Shown one piece after another: positions 32,620 through 62,142 of a stretch of 63,125 bases of DNA. This stretch comes from a virus: UHGV virus genome UHGV-1373161; one strand, given 5' to 3'. The notes under the pieces are model-generated. The model saw only the letters and a program-made list of their open reading frames with translations, searched no databases and was not told where the DNA came from. Position 1 is the first letter of the stretch. Each line of letters begins with the position of its first letter. Both the position numbers and the translations under genes were made by a program.

Positions 32620-33723
32620 TTATGCTGCGTTCGGGTCTTTCGCTGCGGTGTCGATAGCCACCACGCCGAAATCGCGCTTGTTGAAACGGGTCTTGCTGAT
32701 GCCGATGATGGTACCGGCGGCAACAGACGGCTCGTTGTCGTAGTCAGCCAGCTTCTCTTTCCAGGTGAAGTTCAGGCCTTTGGTGGTGCCGTAAGCAACC
32801 ACACCAGCCTGGCGGCCCAGGAAGAGCGCGCGGGCGGCTTTGACGTTGGACGCTGCGCCGTAGTCGCTGAAGCGGATAACGTCGCGGTGCTTGTGCAGCA
32901 CGATATCATCGATCATGCCCAGGCCGCCTTTGAAGATGACGTTGGCTTTACCTTCAGCAGCGGCAGCGGCTTTCTGGATATCCAGCCAGCCCGCACCGGC
33001 TTCGGTACGCAGGTCAAACGCCTGGGTCGGGTTCATCACCAGCACGTAGTGGTCGCTTCCGCCGATAGGGATCGGGAGCAGGTTGGCGCTACGCGGGTCA
33101 AGCGCACGCATCATCGCTGCCTTATGGCTCGCCTTCTCAATCAGCAGGCGGGTCATTTTGTCGTCAGCGGTCAGGGTGGCTTTGCTGGTGGCGGAACCAC
33201 CAAACAGCAGGTGCTGGCCGTCCGGGGTGCGGATCGGGTTGCCTGCGTGCCCGGCGTAGTCGGACGGGAACGATTCATAGTTCTCGTTCATGCCGCGAGC
33301 GCCCGACAGGTAGATGAAGAACATCTGGTCGATGTACTGGCCCCACCATTCGGACAGGCGTTTTTTCGCAACGTCACGCAGATCGTGAGCGGTACGCTTG
33401 CGGGTCATCTTGCCGCCGCAGGAAACAGACTTACGCAGCTGGTCAATGATGATTTCGTCGGAGAAGAACTTCAGCTGTTCTTCGTTGCCTTCCAGACGCT
33501 GGTCGCCGGAAACCGGGCCGCCGCGTAACTGGACGGAGAGATCGAAGCTAATGCGGTCGCCCACGTCAGCATCGAGTTCGGTCTTGCGCTGGATTACTGC
33601 GTCATCACCTTTACCGATGAATTTTTCCCAGTAGCTCTTCCCCAGCGTTTCCGCGTAGAGACGCGCCGACCATTTTTTCTGCGCCTGGACATCATTGCCC
33701 CAGGTGATAGTGGTTTGGCTCAT
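32620..33723 (-). CDS. Major capsid protein, 367 aa
   Basis: Follows the scaffold gene; size and composition typical of HK97-fold podophage coat proteins. Confidence 0.65.
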   Translation of the reverse strand: MSQTTITWGNDVQAQKKWSARLYAETLGKSYWEKFIGKGDDAVIQRKTELDADVGDRISFDLSVQLRGGPVSGDQRLEGNEEQLKFFSDEIIIDQLRKSVSCGGKMTRKRTAHDLRDVAKKRLSEWWGQYIDQMFFIYLSGARGMNENYESFPSDYAGHAGNPIRTPDGQHLLFGGSATSKATLTADDKMTRLLIEKASHKAAMMRALDPRSANLLPIPIGGSDHYVLVMNPTQAFDLRTEAGAGWLDIQKAAAAAEGKANVIFKGGLGMIDDIVLHKHRDVIRFSDYGAASNVKAARALFLGRQAGVVAYGTTKGLNFTWKEKLADYDNEPSVAAGTIIGISKTRFNKRDFGVVAIDTAAKDPNAA

Positions 33724-33802
33724 AATGTGCCCTCAAGAACGTGCGGTGTGTCGGGATCGCCGCACGTCTTGCGCAGCATTACGTTTCGATTATCGAATGA
33801 CT

Positions 33803-33821
33803 GTTGCTGAAATGCAAACAC
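33803..33821. promoter_or_regulatory. Palindrome-family variant GTTGCTgaaatGCAAACAC upstream of the coat gene
   Basis: Shares 17 nt (GAAATGCAAACACTCA) with site 40586-40603 and the left arm with the GTTGCT-N5-AGCAAC family. Confidence 0.45.
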
Positions 33822-34031
33822 TCATGTCATGGCAATGGCTGTTTTGCTTGGAATGTCAACCTCCTGTTGCCCCTCTACAGCGCCGGGGCGCTTATCGCAG
33901 TGAATAATTACGCTTTCCGGCGCTTCGATTATAAAGCTGCACCGTTTACCGGCCTTCTTCACCATACGCACGGTTGCGTCGCCAATTTTCAGCACGTCGC
34001 CCTCGCGCAAATCGAATTTAAGTGCCCCCAC
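33822..34031 (-). CDS. CsrA-like small RNA-binding protein, 69 aa
   Basis: GTG start with AGGAG SD 8 nt upstream; aligns to CsrA: LREGDVLKIGDATVRMV..SFIIEAPESVIIH vs VGETLMIGDEVTVTV..RIGVNAPKEVSVH. Confidence 0.5.
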   Translation of the reverse strand: MGALKFDLREGDVLKIGDATVRMVKKAGKRCSFIIEAPESVIIHCDKRPGAVEGQQEVDIPSKTAIAMT

Positions 34032-34042
34032 GCTGTTTCTCC

Positions 34043-37793: not shown

Positions 37794-39413
37794 TCACACA
37801 GCCATACCCGAAGTATTTCGTCTCGGCTTCGCCTTTGTGCGGCGGCGGCCAGCGTTCGGGTCTGATCCGTACACCTGCGCCCACTGACGGAAGGCGTCGG
37901 CGGCCTCACTGTGACCGTCGTCTTTCTCCGGCTGGTCGGTGAAAGTCTGCATTCTGGCATTATATTTTTTCCGGTAGCTATCCAGGTGAGCAACGCCCTC
38001 TTTGCAGGCATCCTTATCGATCCAGGCTGTTGCCATCATGTTCCTGGTAATCTGGATGCCGTGCTGCAGCTCGCTGACGCGCTCAACGATCTCGATGCGG
38101 CGGCGGCCTTCCTTCTCCAGCATTTCTTTCGGCGTCAGGTTGGCATTCTGCCCCTGCCGTACATGGTTGCCGTCGTGAGGCAGATAGTCGGTGCCCCAAA
38201 CGTACCCCAGCTTGTCCAGCTCCCGGACGTAATAGCCGTATGGTTCGTCCCAGCCCTCAATGAAGCCGATAAATCGATGCTCCTGCCCAATGTGCTGGTG
38301 CAGCCAGATAGCCGTTCCGTCGCCACTGCCGATGTCCCAAAACGTGTTGACGGGATAGCCAGGCGTATACGGTACGGTGGTAAGGCGCTTCTCCTTGCGC
38401 ATCTTGACCATCTGTTTGGTGTAGTAGCAGCCCTCGGTCGATTTCTGGAAAGCCTCTTCCGGCGAGCTGGGGTATTCCTGCCACATCTTTTCGTCCTGGC
38501 CGGAATAGACGTTATCACGCGTGCTCACCCACCATGCCCGCTGCTCGATATCGATCATGGTGTCCATTTTGGCTTCTATCTCGTCAAAATATTCGTGCTC
38601 TGTCTTCGAGATATCGACCAGCTCCGGATCCATGCGGTACTGCATGTCCTCCCACCAGGGATAGAAGTGGAAGGCGAACTCCTTGTTCGTGAGCCTGCGC
38701 CCCAGGGCGGCAATCTTCTGCGCACGCTGGCACATCATGAAGAACTCGCCTTCCCGGCCTTCAGCGGTGGACTCGATGAAAATCATGCCCATTTCAGCCG
38801 CCGGGATTGAGCCGGTCACTACCTCATTGGCGCGGTCAGGGAACTTGGCGCAGATTTTACCGAACTCGGAAATGTGCAGGTGGGTCAGCGTACCGCCACG
38901 GAATGAGGTGGCAACGCTCACCTTGCTGCCGTTGTGGGCGAATTCCAGCGCGTCGGCGCGGTCGCGTACCAGCGGCATCACCGCACGCAGAACATCCGGC
39001 AGGTTGTCATAGCCGAACTTCACCTTGTCCCTGAATATCTCCTCAGCCATGTCCTGGTTATGCGCTACGATAGCCGCTGTCGTCGGGTTATTGGCTGGGG
39101 CGAACAAAGCACAGTCGAGAAACAGGATGGCGATGAACGTCGTGAAGCCCAGCTGGCGCGCCTTTAAGATGATGTTGCGCTTGTGCAGTCTCTTCAGCAG
39201 CTTCCGCTGCGCCCGGTTCGGCTTGAATGGCACAATACGGACTTCGCTTTCATCCTCTTCCCCGAACTCATCTCGCGGTTTGGTCTTGATTTTGTACAGC
39301 TGCCCGGAACACAGCCTCCAGTATGGGTCACTGAGGCACTGGAACAGCTCGTCATCGTTCGATGGCACGAAATCGAGCGGCACTGAGCCGGGTTTAGCCG
39401 CCTGCAAACTCAT
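37794..39413 (-). CDS. Terminase large subunit
   Basis: 540 aa from ATG 39413 (MSLQAAK) with GAGGGGG SD; Walker-A-like ARQLGFTTF; C-terminal nuclease acidic residues. Confidence 0.8.
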   Translation of the reverse strand: MSLQAAKPGSVPLDFVPSNDDELFQCLSDPYWRLCSGQLYKIKTKPRDEFGEEDESEVRIVPFKPNRAQRKLLKRLHKRNIILKARQLGFTTFIAILFLDCALFAPANNPTTAAIVAHNQDMAEEIFRDKVKFGYDNLPDVLRAVMPLVRDRADALEFAHNGSKVSVATSFRGGTLTHLHISEFGKICAKFPDRANEVVTGSIPAAEMGMIFIESTAEGREGEFFMMCQRAQKIAALGRRLTNKEFAFHFYPWWEDMQYRMDPELVDISKTEHEYFDEIEAKMDTMIDIEQRAWWVSTRDNVYSGQDEKMWQEYPSSPEEAFQKSTEGCYYTKQMVKMRKEKRLTTVPYTPGYPVNTFWDIGSGDGTAIWLHQHIGQEHRFIGFIEGWDEPYGYYVRELDKLGYVWGTDYLPHDGNHVRQGQNANLTPKEMLEKEGRRRIEIVERVSELQHGIQITRNMMATAWIDKDACKEGVAHLDSYRKKYNARMQTFTDQPEKDDGHSEAADAFRQWAQVYGSDPNAGRRRTKAKPRRNTSGMAV

Positions 39414-39439
39414 CGCGCCCCCTCGAAAAGCAACGATGT

Positions 39440-39470
39440 GAAGATATTGCACAGAAAACCGCTATAATGC
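39440..39470 (+). promoter_or_regulatory. Candidate promoter of the XRE gene (perfect TATAAT at 39462-39467)
   Basis: TATAAT 45 nt upstream of ATG 39512; the -35 is weak or ambiguous (TTGCAC at a 10-nt spacer). Confidence 0.3.
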
Positions 39471-39511
39471 GGTGAGGCAAGTGCATTTATTTCACTTTGA
39501 GGATATCGAAT

Positions 39512-39730
39512 ATGGGCGGATTTGAACTGAAACTCTGGCGCAATGGCCTGGGCTGGTCCCAGGAACGGGCAGCTGAAGAGCTGGGAGTGAGCAGACGGAC
39601 TTACCTTACGTGGGAACAGAAAGGCACCTCCCGCGTGGTCGAACTTGCCACGCAGGCGCTGTCCATCAAAGCCGAATGGCCTGAAACCGCCAAAAAGCTG
39701 AATAGGCTGTCCACTCTCGCGAAACACTAA
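39512..39730 (+). CDS. XRE-family HTH regulator, 72 aa, antisense between terS and terL
   Basis: GAGGA SD 7 nt upstream; LGWSQERAAEELGVSRRTYLTWEQKG is a canonical HTH_3; stop overlaps the terS stop convergently. Confidence 0.5.
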   Translation: MGGFELKLWRNGLGWSQERAAEELGVSRRTYLTWEQKGTSRVVELATQALSIKAEWPETAKKLNRLSTLAKH

Positions 39731-40509
39731 GTATCCTCTTTGTCCTGCTTAACTGGGGTGATAAGCGCGCCGGGCAGCTGCTGTAGCAGAACTTGCAATG
39801 GGTTCTGCTCATCCCCTTTAAGTGTCAGCTTATCATTGAACATGCCCAGGTGCCTCGCAATCTGGTCGAGCGCTGCTTTCTGGTCATGCATTTTTACTTC
39901 CAGCCCCTCTTTCGACTGCTTCACGCCTGCGAATAGAGCCAGCGCTGCCGGTGAAAGGTTGCGGGTGTCCTGAAAGTAGGTGCTCAGATGGCCGTCGCCG
40001 TGACACTCCGGGCATTTGGCGTGCGGAGAGAGTGAGGAGTCGAATCCATAACCACCTTCATCGGTGATATCGCGTGGCGGCCTATCTTCCTGTTGTGCTG
40101 CCATAGCCTCGCGCGCTTTGGCGTTCTCGAACTCGGCCTCATCCTTCCACTGGAATGCATGGTCAATGCCATAGCAGTGACGGCAGCACGTCCGGCGCAG
40201 CTGTGTCAGCTCGTTCGGGTTGGCGGTCGCTATCATCCAGTACCGCTGTAACACCATGTCCTGGGTGATTTTGGTGCGCTCTGAGCGCTTCTCCATGCCA
40301 GCCAGGATCGCAGCGTAGACCAGAGGCTTCACCTTACCATTGCTGACCCACATGTAGGCTTTCGTTCGGGCAACGGTGGCGCTATAACCGGCCGCAAGTG
40401 CAGCCCGTTCCGGTGACAAATCGATTAGATATTCGTCCACAAAGCGTTTATCGCGTGCTGATAGCTTTGTGGCCTTTGCTGTAGGCGTCTTGGTTTGTTT
40501 CCTGTTCAT
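39727..40509 (-). CDS. Terminase small subunit (Terminase_2/P27-like)
   Basis: KRFVDEYLIDLSPERAALAAGYS motif; first gene of the late operon. Confidence 0.7.
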   Translation of the reverse strand: MNRKQTKTPTAKATKLSARDKRFVDEYLIDLSPERAALAAGYSATVARTKAYMWVSNGKVKPLVYAAILAGMEKRSERTKITQDMVLQRYWMIATANPNELTQLRRTCCRHCYGIDHAFQWKDEAEFENAKAREAMAAQQEDRPPRDITDEGGYGFDSSLSPHAKCPECHGDGHLSTYFQDTRNLSPAALALFAGVKQSKEGLEVKMHDQKAALDQIARHLGMFNDKLTLKGDEQNPLQVLLQQLPGALITPVKQDKEDT

Positions 40510-40589
40510 AACGTGTCCTTGCGGGTTGACATATCCGCATGCATCGGGAATCGCTCCCGGATCGCTTTGTTGCGATTGTAGAAACAGGG

Positions 40590-40607
40590 GTTACGAAATG
40601 CAAACAC
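40590..40607. promoter_or_regulatory. Palindrome-family variant GTTACgaaatGCAAACAC in the terS / plus-island divergent region
   Basis: 17-nt identity with 33806-33824; overlaps the start codon of 40598 and lies about 80 nt upstream of terS. Confidence 0.4.
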
Positions 40608-40864
40608 TCAAGCCGATAGATGGGCGGTGGCTTTACTGGCAGCAGGTAGACCTGGCAAACGGTGTTTTCCGTGTGCAGGGCGCTGAATGGCGTACGGAAT
40701 GTCCAGACTTAACCGAATGGGTTGACTGGACCGGTTCGGCGCAGCTGGAAGAAGAGATCGGCCTGGCTCTCGATATGCTTGGCGCGTACATGCTTGGTAA
40801 ATGGGTTGGCTTCGGACGGACGATAGACGGCATCTGTCATGGTATAGCCTGGATGGTGTCCTGA
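40598..40864 (+). CDS. Hypothetical protein, 88 aa (first gene of the plus-strand island)
   Basis: ATG with AGGGGT SD; Trp-rich, no known motif. Confidence 0.4.
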   Translation: MQTLKPIDGRWLYWQQVDLANGVFRVQGAEWRTECPDLTEWVDWTGSAQLEEEIGLALDMLGAYMLGKWVGFGRTIDGICHGIAWMVS

Positions 40865-41008
40865 TGCGTGACCACTATTGTCCGTGGATAGGCAACACTT
40901 GCTAAGCGCTTTGTTGCCATATCGCACCATCTGATTGCATATTTACAATACTTTTCTGGCGTTACCGCTAACGCTATATTATGATTACCTTGTACCGCGC
41001 AATATGCG

Positions 41009-41019
41009 CCAATAACAAC
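41009..41019 (+). promoter_or_regulatory. Leader motif CCAATAACAAC, 12 nt upstream of the 41032 start
   Basis: Same 11-mer precedes the starts at 57587 and 58137. Confidence 0.4.
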
Positions 41020-41031
41020 GAGGTAACACCC

Positions 41032-41355
41032 ATGACTACCGAATGCACCGCTCTGCGTACTGATGGCTTTATAACCAATATCAAATCACGCAATCCATTC
41101 GATGTTATCCGCGCCGATGTAGTGCTGGAACGGCTGCATAAGCAGGCTTACCAGGGCTGTGGCCTGTACTATGAGATTTATGAGGCCCGGCTGTTAGGTA
41201 TGGCCATCGCCCATCTTGAATTGCTGCCTCAGAAAGACCGTCAGACGTTCATCGCTGCAGCTGAAAAGAAAGGTTTCACGCTGAGCATGGAAGAGCTGGA
41301 ACGCGCTGACGAAGCGCGTGCAGATGTTATGAGAGAAATTCGAGCTGATTACTGA
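41032..41355 (+). CDS. Hypothetical protein, 107 aa
   Basis: ATG with GAGG SD. Confidence 0.45.
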   Translation: MTTECTALRTDGFITNIKSRNPFDVIRADVVLERLHKQAYQGCGLYYEIYEARLLGMAIAHLELLPQKDRQTFIAAAEKKGFTLSMEELERADEARADVMREIRADY

Positions 41356-41367
41356 GCAGGTGCCAAC

Positions 41368-41532
41368 ATGCCAAAATTACCAAGCGTTTTCCCGATTATT
41401 CATGACCACGGCACTGATGCCAAAGGCGCGGAGCGTCACTGCCTGTCACTGGTGAAAGGCGGCTGGTCTGCAAAACTTGTGCGCCCTGCCGGTCGCGGCT
41501 GGCGCGTCGTTATCTCCGGATATCGCGGATAA
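41368..41532 (+). CDS. Small basic protein, 54 aa, not in the ORF track
   Basis: MPKLPSVFPIIHDHGTDAKGAERHCLSLVKGGWSAKLVRPAGRGWRVVISGYRG; weak SD. Confidence 0.25.
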   Translation: MPKLPSVFPIIHDHGTDAKGAERHCLSLVKGGWSAKLVRPAGRGWRVVISGYRG

Positions 41533-41566
41533 AACCTCTTACAGCCCGCAGGGCTAAGGATCATAT

Positions 41567-41833
41567 GTGAACAGCACTACACCGCGCACCCAGCGCAGAC
41601 GCCAGCCACCGCTGGAAGTAAATCAGAGCCTGATTGAAAAGCTGAATGGATTTGTCGAAAGCGCCCGCAAGGGCGAGCAGGATACCGATTACGAATACGC
41701 GATCCGCATGTGGCGCTTCGCTATCCAGATCGTGGAGCAGTTGAGCCACCGGGAAGCTGAGAAGCGTGTGCCGTATTACCTGAACCGCATCGACTTCTGC
41801 GAGAAAATGGTGAAGCGGGGTAAGCGGTCATGA
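41567..41833 (+). CDS. Hypothetical protein, 88 aa
   Basis: GTG start 7 nt after AAGGA. Confidence 0.4.
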   Translation: MNSTTPRTQRRRQPPLEVNQSLIEKLNGFVESARKGEQDTDYEYAIRMWRFAIQIVEQLSHREAEKRVPYYLNRIDFCEKMVKRGKRS

Positions 41834-42072
41834 TTACGATCCCCGTCACCGGCTACGCAATCGTCCTGGCGTGCTCAATTAACGCTGGCACGCCGGATTG
41901 CATCGAGCAGCTGGCTACCGGCTATGTGTGGGCCAATGCCCAGCGCTGCCAGGAAGAGCTGGACCACGCGAAAATACCTGGCGCGCAGTGCCAGAGCCTT
42001 TCCGGCATCACCGTTTCTGATGAAGGCACCGGCCCGGCACTGGCACGCATGATCGACGTGGAGGGTATGTGA
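41830..42072 (+). CDS. Small exported/lipoprotein-like protein, 80 aa
   Basis: N-term hydrophobic ITIPVTGYAIVLAC (lipobox-like VLAC); ATGA coupling. Confidence 0.35.
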   Translation: MITIPVTGYAIVLACSINAGTPDCIEQLATGYVWANAQRCQEELDHAKIPGAQCQSLSGITVSDEGTGPALARMIDVEGM

Positions 42073-42290
42073 CTAAACCAAATCCCGGCGCGCTGCGAGC
42101 GCGGAGCTACACCAAACGTCGCCAGGATCAGGGGGACGTTAAAACTACCGTGTGGCTGAAAGGAAAGACAAACGCTGTCATTCAGGAGCTGGCGAAGCAG
42201 GAGGGAGTAACACGCGATGAGCTGATAGAGCGCATCTGTAACGGCTACATCGAGTTTAAAACCAGACCAGTGACCCAACCCCACGAATAA
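42069..42290 (+). CDS. Ribbon-helix-helix-like small protein, 73 aa
   Basis: KTTVWLKGKTNAVIQELAKQEGVTRDELIERI has strand-helix-helix architecture; GTG start in GTGA overlap. Confidence 0.35.
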   Translation: MTKPNPGALRARSYTKRRQDQGDVKTTVWLKGKTNAVIQELAKQEGVTRDELIERICNGYIEFKTRPVTQPHE

Positions 42291-60876: not shown

Positions 60877-62142
60877 ATGCCAGCACTCACAGATGGACAG
60901 ATAAAAAACGCGCTGAAGCGCGTCGCCAAATCGCAGAAACCTGAAACCCTGGCCGACGGCGAAGGGCGCGGCACCGGCCGCCTTGTGCTGGTCATTAAGC
61001 CTATGCCGACCCGCGTCACGTCGAACTGGTTCGCGCAGCAGTGGCTGGAGGGGAAGCGCAAACTGAAGAAGCTGGGCGAATACCCGCACATGAGCCTGGC
61101 GGACGCCCGCGAGGTGTTCACCCGCGACTTTTCCGCCGCCATCAATAAGGGGGCATCGATCAAGGTCCAGGGCGACACCCGGCCCGGCACCGTGGGCGAC
61201 CTGTTCGAAGGCTACGCCGACTGGCTGCGGGACAGCGGCAAAATGAGCCACAAAGAGGCCAGGAAAGGCCTGAACAAGATTGCCGACGAGCTGGGCCGCA
61301 ACCGGCTGGCGCGCGACATCGAGCCGATTGACGTGCTGAACGTCCTGCGCCCCATCTATGAGCGCGGGAAGAAGGCTATGGCTGACCACGTGCGCAGCTA
61401 CGTGCGCAGCGCCTACAGCTGGGGCATGAAGAGCGAGAACGACTATCGATCCACCAGCCCCAGGCGGTTCAACCTGGTGAGCAACCCGGCAGCTGGGATC
61501 CCCACCGAACCGAAGAAGCCGGGCGAGCGCTGGCTGCGTGAAGAGGAATGGGTGAAGATGTGGCGCTGGTTACAAAATCCTGACGTGGCTATCCATCCCT
61601 CCTATCCCCGCGCCATCATGCTGCTGATGCTGACCGGCCAGCGCGTGCAAGAGATTTGCACCCTGCACGTTGACCAGTACGACCGCGATGAAGGCATGAT
61701 CGACTGGTCAAAGACGAAGAACGGGAAGCCTCATGCCATCCCCCTGCCCGGCCTGGCCATCGAGCTGCTGAACAGCCTCACGCCGAATGAGCATGGCTGG
61801 TTTTTCCCCGGCAGTAAGGATCCGTCGCTCTCGGTCCAGCACCAGACGCTCTATTCCTTCCTGTGGCGGCAGCGCGACCGGGGCGTTATCCCGCACGTCA
61901 CGAACCGCGACATGCGCCGCACCTGGAAGACCCTGGCGGGCAAGGCCGGACTGACGAAAGAGATCCGCGACCGGCTGCAGAACCACACCCTGCAGGACGT
62001 ATCGAGCAAGAGCTATGACCGGTACAGCTATATCTCGGAGAAGCGCGAGGCGATGGAGATTTGGGATAAGTTCGTGCGGGAAATGATCCGTGATAAGACA
62101 CCGCCAAGGCTGACGGTTATCGCCGGAACGGAAGCAGCATAA
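60877..62142 (+). CDS. int: Tyrosine integrase, P4-type (N-terminal DUF4102-like arm-binding domain)
   Basis: N-term TDGQIKNALK...GRGTGRLVLVIKP; catalytic region with conserved R/H/R and the Tyr-bearing KSYDRYSY segment; 421 aa. Confidence 0.85.
   Translation: MPALTDGQIKNALKRVAKSQKPETLADGEGRGTGRLVLVIKPMPTRVTSNWFAQQWLEGKRKLKKLGEYPHMSLADAREVFTRDFSAAINKGASIKVQGDTRPGTVGDLFEGYADWLRDSGKMSHKEARKGLNKIADELGRNRLARDIEPIDVLNVLRPIYERGKKAMADHVRSYVRSAYSWGMKSENDYRSTSPRRFNLVSNPAAGIPTEPKKPGERWLREEEWVKMWRWLQNPDVAIHPSYPRAIMLLMLTGQRVQEICTLHVDQYDRDEGMIDWSKTKNGKPHAIPLPGLAIELLNSLTPNEHGWFFPGSKDPSLSVQHQTLYSFLWRQRDRGVIPHVTNRDMRRTWKTLAGKAGLTKEIRDRLQNHTLQDVSSKSYDRYSYISEKREAMEIWDKFVREMIRDKTPPRLTVIAGTEAA

Follow-up and report, generated by a model that had tools for sequence, protein, structure and literature searches.

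The 63,125-bp stretch of DNA analysed here, virus genome UHGV-1373161 (below, the window, meaning the whole stretch at its full length), is a Lastavirus-type Klebsiella phage genome in which the terminase genes terS and terL, both on the minus strand, are separated by an interval of 313 nt (39414-39726). On the plus strand this interval carries the gene for a 72-residue helix-turn-helix (HTH) protein of the XRE family (39512-39730, here the HTH gene), preceded by a promoter-like hexamer lying between two short dyads. On the minus strand it carries an open reading frame (ORF) of 105 codons (39410-39727), here termed the bridge ORF, which contains the whole HTH gene on its opposite strand in codon-aligned phase. 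The first-pass annotation of the locus had reported the HTH gene and the 313-nt gap, both of which were confirmed, and had named a conserved minus-strand function for the gap as something that would refute its reading. A conserved, coupled bridge ORF fills that gap, which does not abolish the HTH gene and changes the picture to one of two fully overlapping, opposite reading frames. The HTH gene is itself an ordinary and already annotated member of the XRE class, and it is the architecture of the locus that is the interesting result.

A conserved open frame between terS and terL

The bridge ORF is joined to the terminase genes at both ends. Its GTG start overlaps the terS stop codon (TAGTG), its TGA stop overlaps the terL ATG (ATGA), and a Shine-Dalgarno-like GAGGA lies 6 nt before its start, within the last terS codons (39734-39738, minus strand). 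A start overlapping the terS stop together with a stop overlapping or abutting the terL start is the arrangement of a translational-coupling junction. In relatives the start likewise overlaps the terS stop, as TAATG or TAGTG, the exception being phage Pavtok with a TTG two bases later, and a GAGG(A/G) motif is present 6-10 nt upstream of the bridge ATG in nearly all. The other end of the frame coincides with the terL start, as ATGA or TTGA in five lineages and as an overlap of 8-17 nt in the others.

Codon-aligned antisense ORFs are common in the window genome, and the bridge frame was therefore tested comparatively, in 15 first-round and seven further metagenomic loci having the HTH gene in terminase context. 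The three codons that place a stop in the bridge frame (TTA, CTA and TCA) make up 1.35% of genome codons, giving P=0.375 for a run of 72 codons free of them. The frame was open across both the HTH gene and the adjoining spacer in all 15 first-round loci and in all seven further ones. None of the 198 leucine and serine codons of the HTH genes (138 Leu, 60 Ser) was TTA, CTA or TCA, against 22.8 expected from the codon usage of the flanking terL and terS genes (Poisson 1.3e-10). The loci are nearly independent of one another, most pairs being 30-50% identical at third codon positions. In the spacer the bridge frame was stop-free in 14 of 14 loci, whilst each of the other five frames contained 16-33 stops. 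HTH homologues in non-terminase contexts did have antisense stops, in 9/9, 33/34 and 68/71 members of three control sets, and the difference between terminase and other contexts was pronounced (Fisher's exact test, 1e-16). The last HTH codon, which lies opposite the bridge start, encodes histidine (CAT or CAC, the reverse complements of ATG and GTG) in every terminase-context locus but Pavtok; 0/34 control homologues in one set and 1/71 in another end in this residue. Landmarks within the interval, such as the distance from the downstream dyad (O2, described below) to the HTH ATG, shift between lineages by lengths that are not multiples of three, and still the frame is open.

Pseudomonas phage Skulduggery provides an independent replicate of this arrangement as judged by sequence comparison. 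It carries a different HTH gene that does not touch the terS stop, yet the corresponding phase holds a 152-codon ORF that begins with an ATGA overlap at the terS stop and ends 3 nt short of the terL ATG. As regards that ATG, Skulduggery terL probably starts at 3490 (MAARVID...) and not at 3469 (locus L005, 3469-3490).

These observations bear on the alternative that the minus-strand ORF is a codon-bias shadow of the HTH gene, neither translated nor selected. Codon-aligned antisense frames are often open in this genome, as the value of P=0.375 illustrates, and that is the point in its favour. A shadow would have to persist in all lineages despite near-saturated synonymous sites, to extend over a non-coding spacer that is open in the bridge frame only, to be lacking from homologues in other contexts, and to begin and end exactly at the terS and terL junctions; we consider this scarcely tenable. 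Codon bias was also rejected as the cause of the open frame since the HTH genes do use other non-optimal codons, such as CTT, AGA, AGG and GGA.

The sequence of the predicted bridge product behaves quite differently from its frame. Pairwise amino-acid identity is 34% for the bridge ORF as against 57% for the HTH protein, bridge-ORF variation is concentrated at its first codon positions, and its length ranges from 100 to 152 amino acids with a non-overlapping tail that is unrelated between lineages. No Pfam or PHROG family matched the bridge ORF, and among 5.8 billion proteins searched the sole match was a near-identical protein from a metagenome-assembled genome (MAG). A short match between the Skulduggery bridge and gp604 of phage Itty13 (E=2e-5) involves the C-terminal end of the bridge, beside the terL ribosome-binding site, and was attributed to nucleotide conservation near that site. 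A functional bridge protein, for instance a packaging accessory factor, which would make the locus a true antisense overlapping gene pair, would account for the conserved start, Shine-Dalgarno motif, open frame and stop position, and the annotations of Serratia phage Parlo and of one MAG include the ORF as a gene. Set against its divergence, concentrated at first codon positions, its variable length and unrelated tails, and its lack of families or of homologues beyond near-identical phages, this explanation is improbable. The comparisons instead give good support for selection that keeps the bridge frame open, initiated and properly terminated, with the amino-acid sequence itself not conserved.

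The antisense HTH gene

The HTH gene (39512-39730, plus strand; 72 amino acids plus stop, beginning MGGFELKLWRNGLGWSQERAAEELGVSRRTYLTWEQKG...) matched Pfam HTH_3 (PF01381; E=1.3e-6, 28.7 bits against a 23-bit cutoff) and HTH_31 (PF13560; 27.3 bits against a cutoff of 27). It also matched phrog_6962, a family without assigned function (E=7.6e-35), with residues 1-72 aligned on a 73-position profile. An AlphaFold2 model (pLDDT 85) contains helices at residues 3-12, 17-24 and 28-37 and a long C-terminal helix at 41-71, and Foldseek matched it to XRE structures with a probability of 0.99-1.0. Membership of the XRE/HTH_3 family is thus indicated both by profile score and by the helical-bundle fold, and the product is well supported as a genuine small XRE-type HTH protein. 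Among 5.8 billion sequences it fell into 29 protein clusters, mostly on phage contigs of about 61-63 kb. Pairwise differences at codon positions one, two and three (0.33, 0.285 and 0.575) follow a coding pattern and are indicative of purifying selection in the plus frame.

A Shine-Dalgarno sequence, GAGGA, lies 8 nt before the ATG (39499-39503, plus strand), as had been proposed, and spacer alignment places a GAGG or GGGG motif at the same position in relatives. The HTH stop codon (TAA, 39728-39730, plus strand) overlaps the terS stop (TAG, 39729-39727, minus strand), so that the convergent overlap seen by the first-pass annotation and its placing of the gene in the path of late transcription both stand. 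Although a promoter-like -10 is present, a terminator scan revealed no plus-strand terminator downstream of the HTH gene. No co-transcribed plus-strand partner ORF was found; the gene is monocistronic, its neighbours terS and terL being on the other strand.

The same annotation had regarded the gene as an insert, possibly a lysogen-expressed moron. This was rejected on composition and distribution: the GC content of the gene (0.571) equals that of the genome (0.571), and it is present in all clade members examined, including phages LASTA and SJM3, rather than patchily. In comparison with related phages the gene is retained throughout the clade and absent only from more distant relatives. It is already annotated as a transcriptional regulator in LASTA, SopranoGao and vB_KpnP_ZX1 (below, ZX1), and the LASTA/SJM3, ZX1 and Parlo papers contain no discussion of it.

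The structural neighbours of the HTH protein are generic small XRE regulators, namely C.BclI, HipB, SinR and Aca1, and its best full-length structural match is the N-terminal part of Aca2. Such neighbours raise the question of whether it is an orphan antitoxin-like or Aca-like anti-defence regulator of some host or partner function, to which the terminase context would be irrelevant. HipB, HigA2, Aca1 and Aca2 do occur among its structural and sequence neighbours, and homologues elsewhere adjoin HigB/RelE-like pairs. The unit is monocistronic, with neither a toxin gene nor an acr-like gene, and the matches themselves (E 0.003-0.2) are those of a generic XRE fold, making this explanation very improbable. 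The HTH protein belongs to a wider family (MTGYELRLWRKGMxWxQERAAEELG...) whose members are frequent in Enterobacterales genomic islands, in plasmids and in other phages, often near HigB/RelE-like toxin-antitoxin pairs.

A promoter-like element between two phased dyads

A TATAAT hexamer, the -10 element of a putative HTH promoter, is located at 39463-39468 on the plus strand, where it is the sole plus-strand TATAAT in the window. The first-pass annotation had credited the gene with its own perfect -10; the hexamer is present and its conservation was established, though the position given (39462-39467) was one base off. In spacer alignments of relatives TATAAT, TAGAAT or TATACT occurs between both dyads, in several cases with an extended -10 TGn.

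The dyads are 15 bp long and of the form rYGCA-N5-TGCRy. The first, O1 (GTGAA-gatat-TGCAC, GTGAAgatatTGCAC, 39438-39452), is a putative operator over the -35 zone, approximately 25 bp before the terL ATG, and the second, O2 (GTGCA-tttat-TTCAC, GTGCAtttatTTCAC, 39481-39495), is a putative operator at the expected transcription start or immediately after it. The core GCA-N5-TGC had 21 exact occurrences in 16 spacers against 0.41 expected from shuffles. The two dyads are separated by exactly 43 bp, about four helical turns, in 15 of the 17 tabulated loci, and this spacing is constant while the distances of the dyads to the ATG and to the -10 vary between lineages. Half-site centres are 10 bp apart, as expected of an HTH dimer. 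Strict and relaxed searches of the whole window for other operator sites revealed neither enrichment nor a second 43-bp pair. The layout, classic for a dimeric HTH autorepressor, looks like that of an autoregulated operator pair flanking a promoter immediately upstream of terL. The HTH protein would then be an autorepressed monocistronic regulator whose only recognisable putative sites are 25-80 bp before the terL start.

An RNA helix formed between O1 and O2 was disfavoured. The N5 spacers of the two dyads show no covariation, which favours protein operators. A weak, terminator-like hairpin on the minus strand (39458-39473; ACCGC-ATTATA-GCGGT followed by TTTTCT), with the TATAAT as its loop, was rejected as a functional late-strand attenuator, being conserved in the closest relatives only, and is probably incidental. 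An Rfam scan of 38900-41100 gave no matches at E<=1.

The paired sites also suggest a structural alternative, in which the HTH protein and its two phased dyads mark or bend DNA for the terminase as a pac-site accessory, in the manner of integration host factor (IHF) at lambda cosB. A conserved position in the terminase module, two putative sites on the same helix face and headful packaging by these phages all fit such a role. Dyads flanking the gene's own promoter are already explained by autoregulation, and the antisense orientation with a host-type promoter suggests a timing different from that of the terminase genes. We accordingly attach very little weight to it.

Distribution of the arrangement in related phages

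The terS-HTH-terL locus of the window is 97-98% identical to those of ZX1, LASTA, SJM3 and SopranoGao, and the structural arm of the window again matches these four phages. The HTH gene is kept between terS and terL at 52-100% identity in all related loci, is 100% identical in LASTA and SJM3, and is present in every examined member of the Lastavirus/Pavtokvirus/Parlovirus clade. The same antisense gene is shared, at 52-75% identity, by three Erwinia phages (PEp14, Pavtok and Stean), by Serratia phage Parlo and by numerous metagenomic phage contigs of approximately 61-63 kb, and Skulduggery has a 33%-identical analogue in the same place.

Two of these records differ in how the gene is annotated. 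The bridge ORF is annotated in Parlo as CPT_Parlo_057 in place of the HTH gene, which is omitted (locus L013, 2202-2519). Pavtok gp2 is annotated with 110 amino acids (locus L002, 3894-4223), and the conserved start is MGGYELKLW at 4002.

The antisense HTH gene is absent from the more distant relatives with the same TerL type that were compared, Itty13, F116, Bcep22, JC1 and UAM5. In F116 terS and terL are separated by 3 nt, and in Bcep22, JC1 and UAM5 other small sense-strand genes occupy the junction. Itty13 has two sense-strand genes between terS and terL (locus L004, 3198-3976), one of them GIY-YIG endonuclease-like by sequence motif only. From these sequences the terS-terL junction seems to be a recurrent insertion site. 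In the contig IMGVR_UViG_3300011523_000001 (locus L021, 2250-2887) about 640 extra nt lie between the bridge-ORF stop and terL; they encode a minus-strand ORF with an HTH-like YLSGKSVREIAKATG segment and look like a homing-endonuclease-type insertion.

Such a distribution has to be weighed against the possibility that the HTH protein acts in trans and outside the phage, on host genes or on superinfecting relatives as an immunity or exclusion function, its position being a historical accident that the bridge ORF makes tolerable. Homologues occur widely and in quite different contexts, in Enterobacterales islands, in plasmids and in other phages. The group to which these phages belong is temperate or ex-temperate: the window has an intact integrase, ZX1 is described as temperate, and PEp14 and Pavtok are treated as such. 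Small autoregulated HTH proteins, moreover, often have few sites. The phage genome itself, on the other side, offers no further operator-like sites, the position is kept in Klebsiella, Erwinia, Serratia and Pseudomonas phages even at 33% HTH identity, and the gene is unchanged in the virulent LASTA and SJM3. On balance a regulator acting only elsewhere appears unlikely, though it deserves serious consideration.

A proposed relay frame and gate on terL

The explanation that we favour, with a probability of roughly 0.55 for the explanation as a whole, is that a conserved antisense HTH gene with its operator pair is housed inside a bridge ORF that relays translation from terS to terL, the HTH protein serving as a gate in cis. 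An operon that contains an untranslated stretch is open to Rho-dependent polarity, and stop and start codons that overlap couple translation across the junction (review PMC12548453). Taken together with a frame that is open and not conserved in sequence, this makes a ribosome bridge the most economical reading. The selected property of the bridge ORF would be ribosome transit from terS to terL, which would keep the two genes translationally coupled, and its translation would protect the late mRNA from Rho-dependent polarity across an otherwise untranslated stretch. Ancestrally, insertion of a cassette may have broken a direct terS-terL junction like that of F116, the bridge ORF being the operon's accommodation to it.

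The HTH protein would most likely be a cis-acting gate on terL, since its sole putative operator pair is 25-80 bp before terL and its position is conserved across several genera; among Klebsiella, Erwinia, Serratia and Pseudomonas phages that position has been kept at the cost of maintaining the bridge ORF. Early in infection, or in a lysogen, operator-bound dimers together with convergent transcription from the HTH promoter could hold down any weak or leaky read-through that enters terL and the head genes beyond it, and strong late transcription would run over the HTH promoter and silence it. A role for the HTH protein as a repressor of packaging genes or an antisense brake on terminase expression, both raised in the first-pass annotation, is plausible. 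An operator pair placed right before terL would fit a local brake better than a trans-acting regulator, and the proposed gate agrees in spirit with such a brake; for the role of the protein beyond autoregulation it is our best guess. A narrower version of this explanation, in which the bridge is kept solely for ribosome travel (as anti-polarity element and relay) with its product irrelevant, and in which the HTH protein with its phased operators sets a threshold in cis for terL and the head genes, is put forward tentatively.

Several points weigh against the favoured explanation. That the HTH gene is transcribed and the bridge ORF translated is inferred from sequence. No canonical or acceptable -35 accompanies the TATAAT and a sigma-70 consensus scan made no promoter call at it; the -10 was retained as a promoter element despite that scan, because of its comparative conservation only. 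Pavtok and PEp14 are without a clear O2 and Skulduggery is without the dyad motif. A strong Shine-Dalgarno sequence of its own precedes terL, and coupling may therefore not be essential. The gate is a positional argument, and synteny could persist by descent alone. Lastly, the intact HTH gene in LASTA and SJM3, which are reported as virulent, makes a lysogeny-only role unlikely and is no proof of a lytic one.

What is new here is the 43-bp dyad pair around the promoter and the conserved late-strand bridge ORF, the HTH annotation being already known. Coding pairs in which one gene is wholly nested antisense in the other are both rare and contentious in bacteria and phages, since antisense ORFs are usually dismissed as shadows. 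At this locus the signal is measurable against controls from the same family, as avoidance of stops, as a pinned start and stop and as the Skulduggery replicate. If the interpretation is true, it is a clear, comparatively proven case of fully overlapping opposite-strand frames under different kinds of selection. What the data suggest is selection on translation itself and not on a protein, which would be a general route by which an essential coupled operon could absorb an insertion on the opposite strand. The locus also illustrates a problem of annotation: in GenBank Parlo has the sense ORF and the other phages the HTH gene, and whichever frame a gene caller keeps, the other will be lost. A regulator at the entrance to terL could moreover bear on the unusually long latent period of therapy-relevant Klebsiella Lastavirus phages (LASTA, SJM3, ZX1).

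Neighbouring genes and lifestyle

The terS gene (39727-40509, minus strand) encodes a 260-residue protein matching Terminase_2 (PF03592, E=2.6e-25). The 539-residue product of terL (37794-39413, minus strand) was identified by tblastn to the annotated TerL proteins of LASTA, Parlo, PEp14, F116 and others, its start in the window being assigned from N-termini conserved among relatives, and its Shine-Dalgarno sequence is GAGGGGG (39418-39424, minus strand).

An intact 421-residue tyrosine integrase with arm-binding, central and catalytic domains is encoded at 60877-62142. LASTA and SJM3 were reported to be virulent, with a truncated integrase present as a 258-bp remnant (PMC10052179). ZX1 has been described as temperate, and PEp14 and Pavtok have been treated as temperate phages with headful packaging. 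Given an intact integrase where LASTA and SJM3 have a remnant, the window phage is probably temperate.

Approximately five small plus-strand genes are found at 40981-42290, between minus-strand replication genes and terS, and in LASTA some of them carry the annotation transcriptional regulator or ANR family regulator. These genes, which diverge from the terS promoter region, are candidate late-gene regulators. In LASTA the major capsid gene and the head gene upstream of it are separated by a gene annotated as CsrA-like (locus L001, 14527-14736), the equivalent region of the window being near 33800-34040. An exact 25-nt repeat, GGGATCGCCGCACGTCTTGCGCAGC, occurs at 2192-2216 and 33753-33777 (two copies, none expected). 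Both copies lie, on the minus strand, just upstream of minus-strand genes, an ORF at 1605-2204 and the major capsid gene at 32620-33723, and the repeat is possibly a late leader, promoter or RNA element common to both.

Comparison with known systems

The controller proteins of restriction-modification systems (C.AhdI, C.BclI and C.Esp1396I) are likewise XRE-fold dimers of about 70-80 amino acids that regulate themselves through two dyad operators, and C proteins are found among the fold matches of the HTH protein (2b5a, 1y7y). The operators of C proteins are adjacent, whereas the dyads of the HTH gene are 43 bp apart and bracket the -10. Unlike the C-protein genes, the HTH unit has no restriction or modification gene and no C-box; it consists of a single gene lying antisense within a late operon. 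With terminase genes as neighbours and GCA-N5-TGC dyads as operators, it was not assigned to this class.

Aca1 and Aca2, too, are small HTH proteins of phages that repress their own promoter by binding inverted repeats there, and Aca2 is the best full-length structural match of the HTH protein (TMq 0.71). The HTH locus differs in that there is no upstream acr gene, the C-terminal domain of Aca2 is absent and sequence similarity is marginal (E 0.4). The 98 nt upstream of the HTH ATG consist of putative promoter and operator elements and contain stops in the HTH frame, and membership of the Aca group was rejected. Assignment to the type II antitoxins (HipB/HigA-like) was likewise rejected as there is no adjacent co-transcribed toxin gene.

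The immI region of P22 (mnt, arc, ant and sar RNA) resembles the HTH locus in placing regulatory genes within the late region of a temperate podophage, and in its opposed or convergent transcription with antisense RNA effects. It differs in encoding ribbon-helix-helix proteins, in not lying between terS and terL, and in occupying its own space rather than being nested in a sense-strand ORF.

Embedded antisense genes of E. coli likewise consist of one ORF fully nested antisense in another (PMC9927249; bioRxiv 10.1101/2020.11.18.388249). In the cases described there the embedded ORF is the young and poorly conserved partner of an established gene. At the HTH locus conservation lies with the embedded gene, and the ORF around it is conserved only as an open, coupled frame, the support for it being comparative rather than expression-based. 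F116 has the same terminase type with the terS stop and the terL start, 3 nt apart, linked for coupled translation; in place of this 3-nt junction, the window has a 105-codon relay ORF running across an antisense gene.

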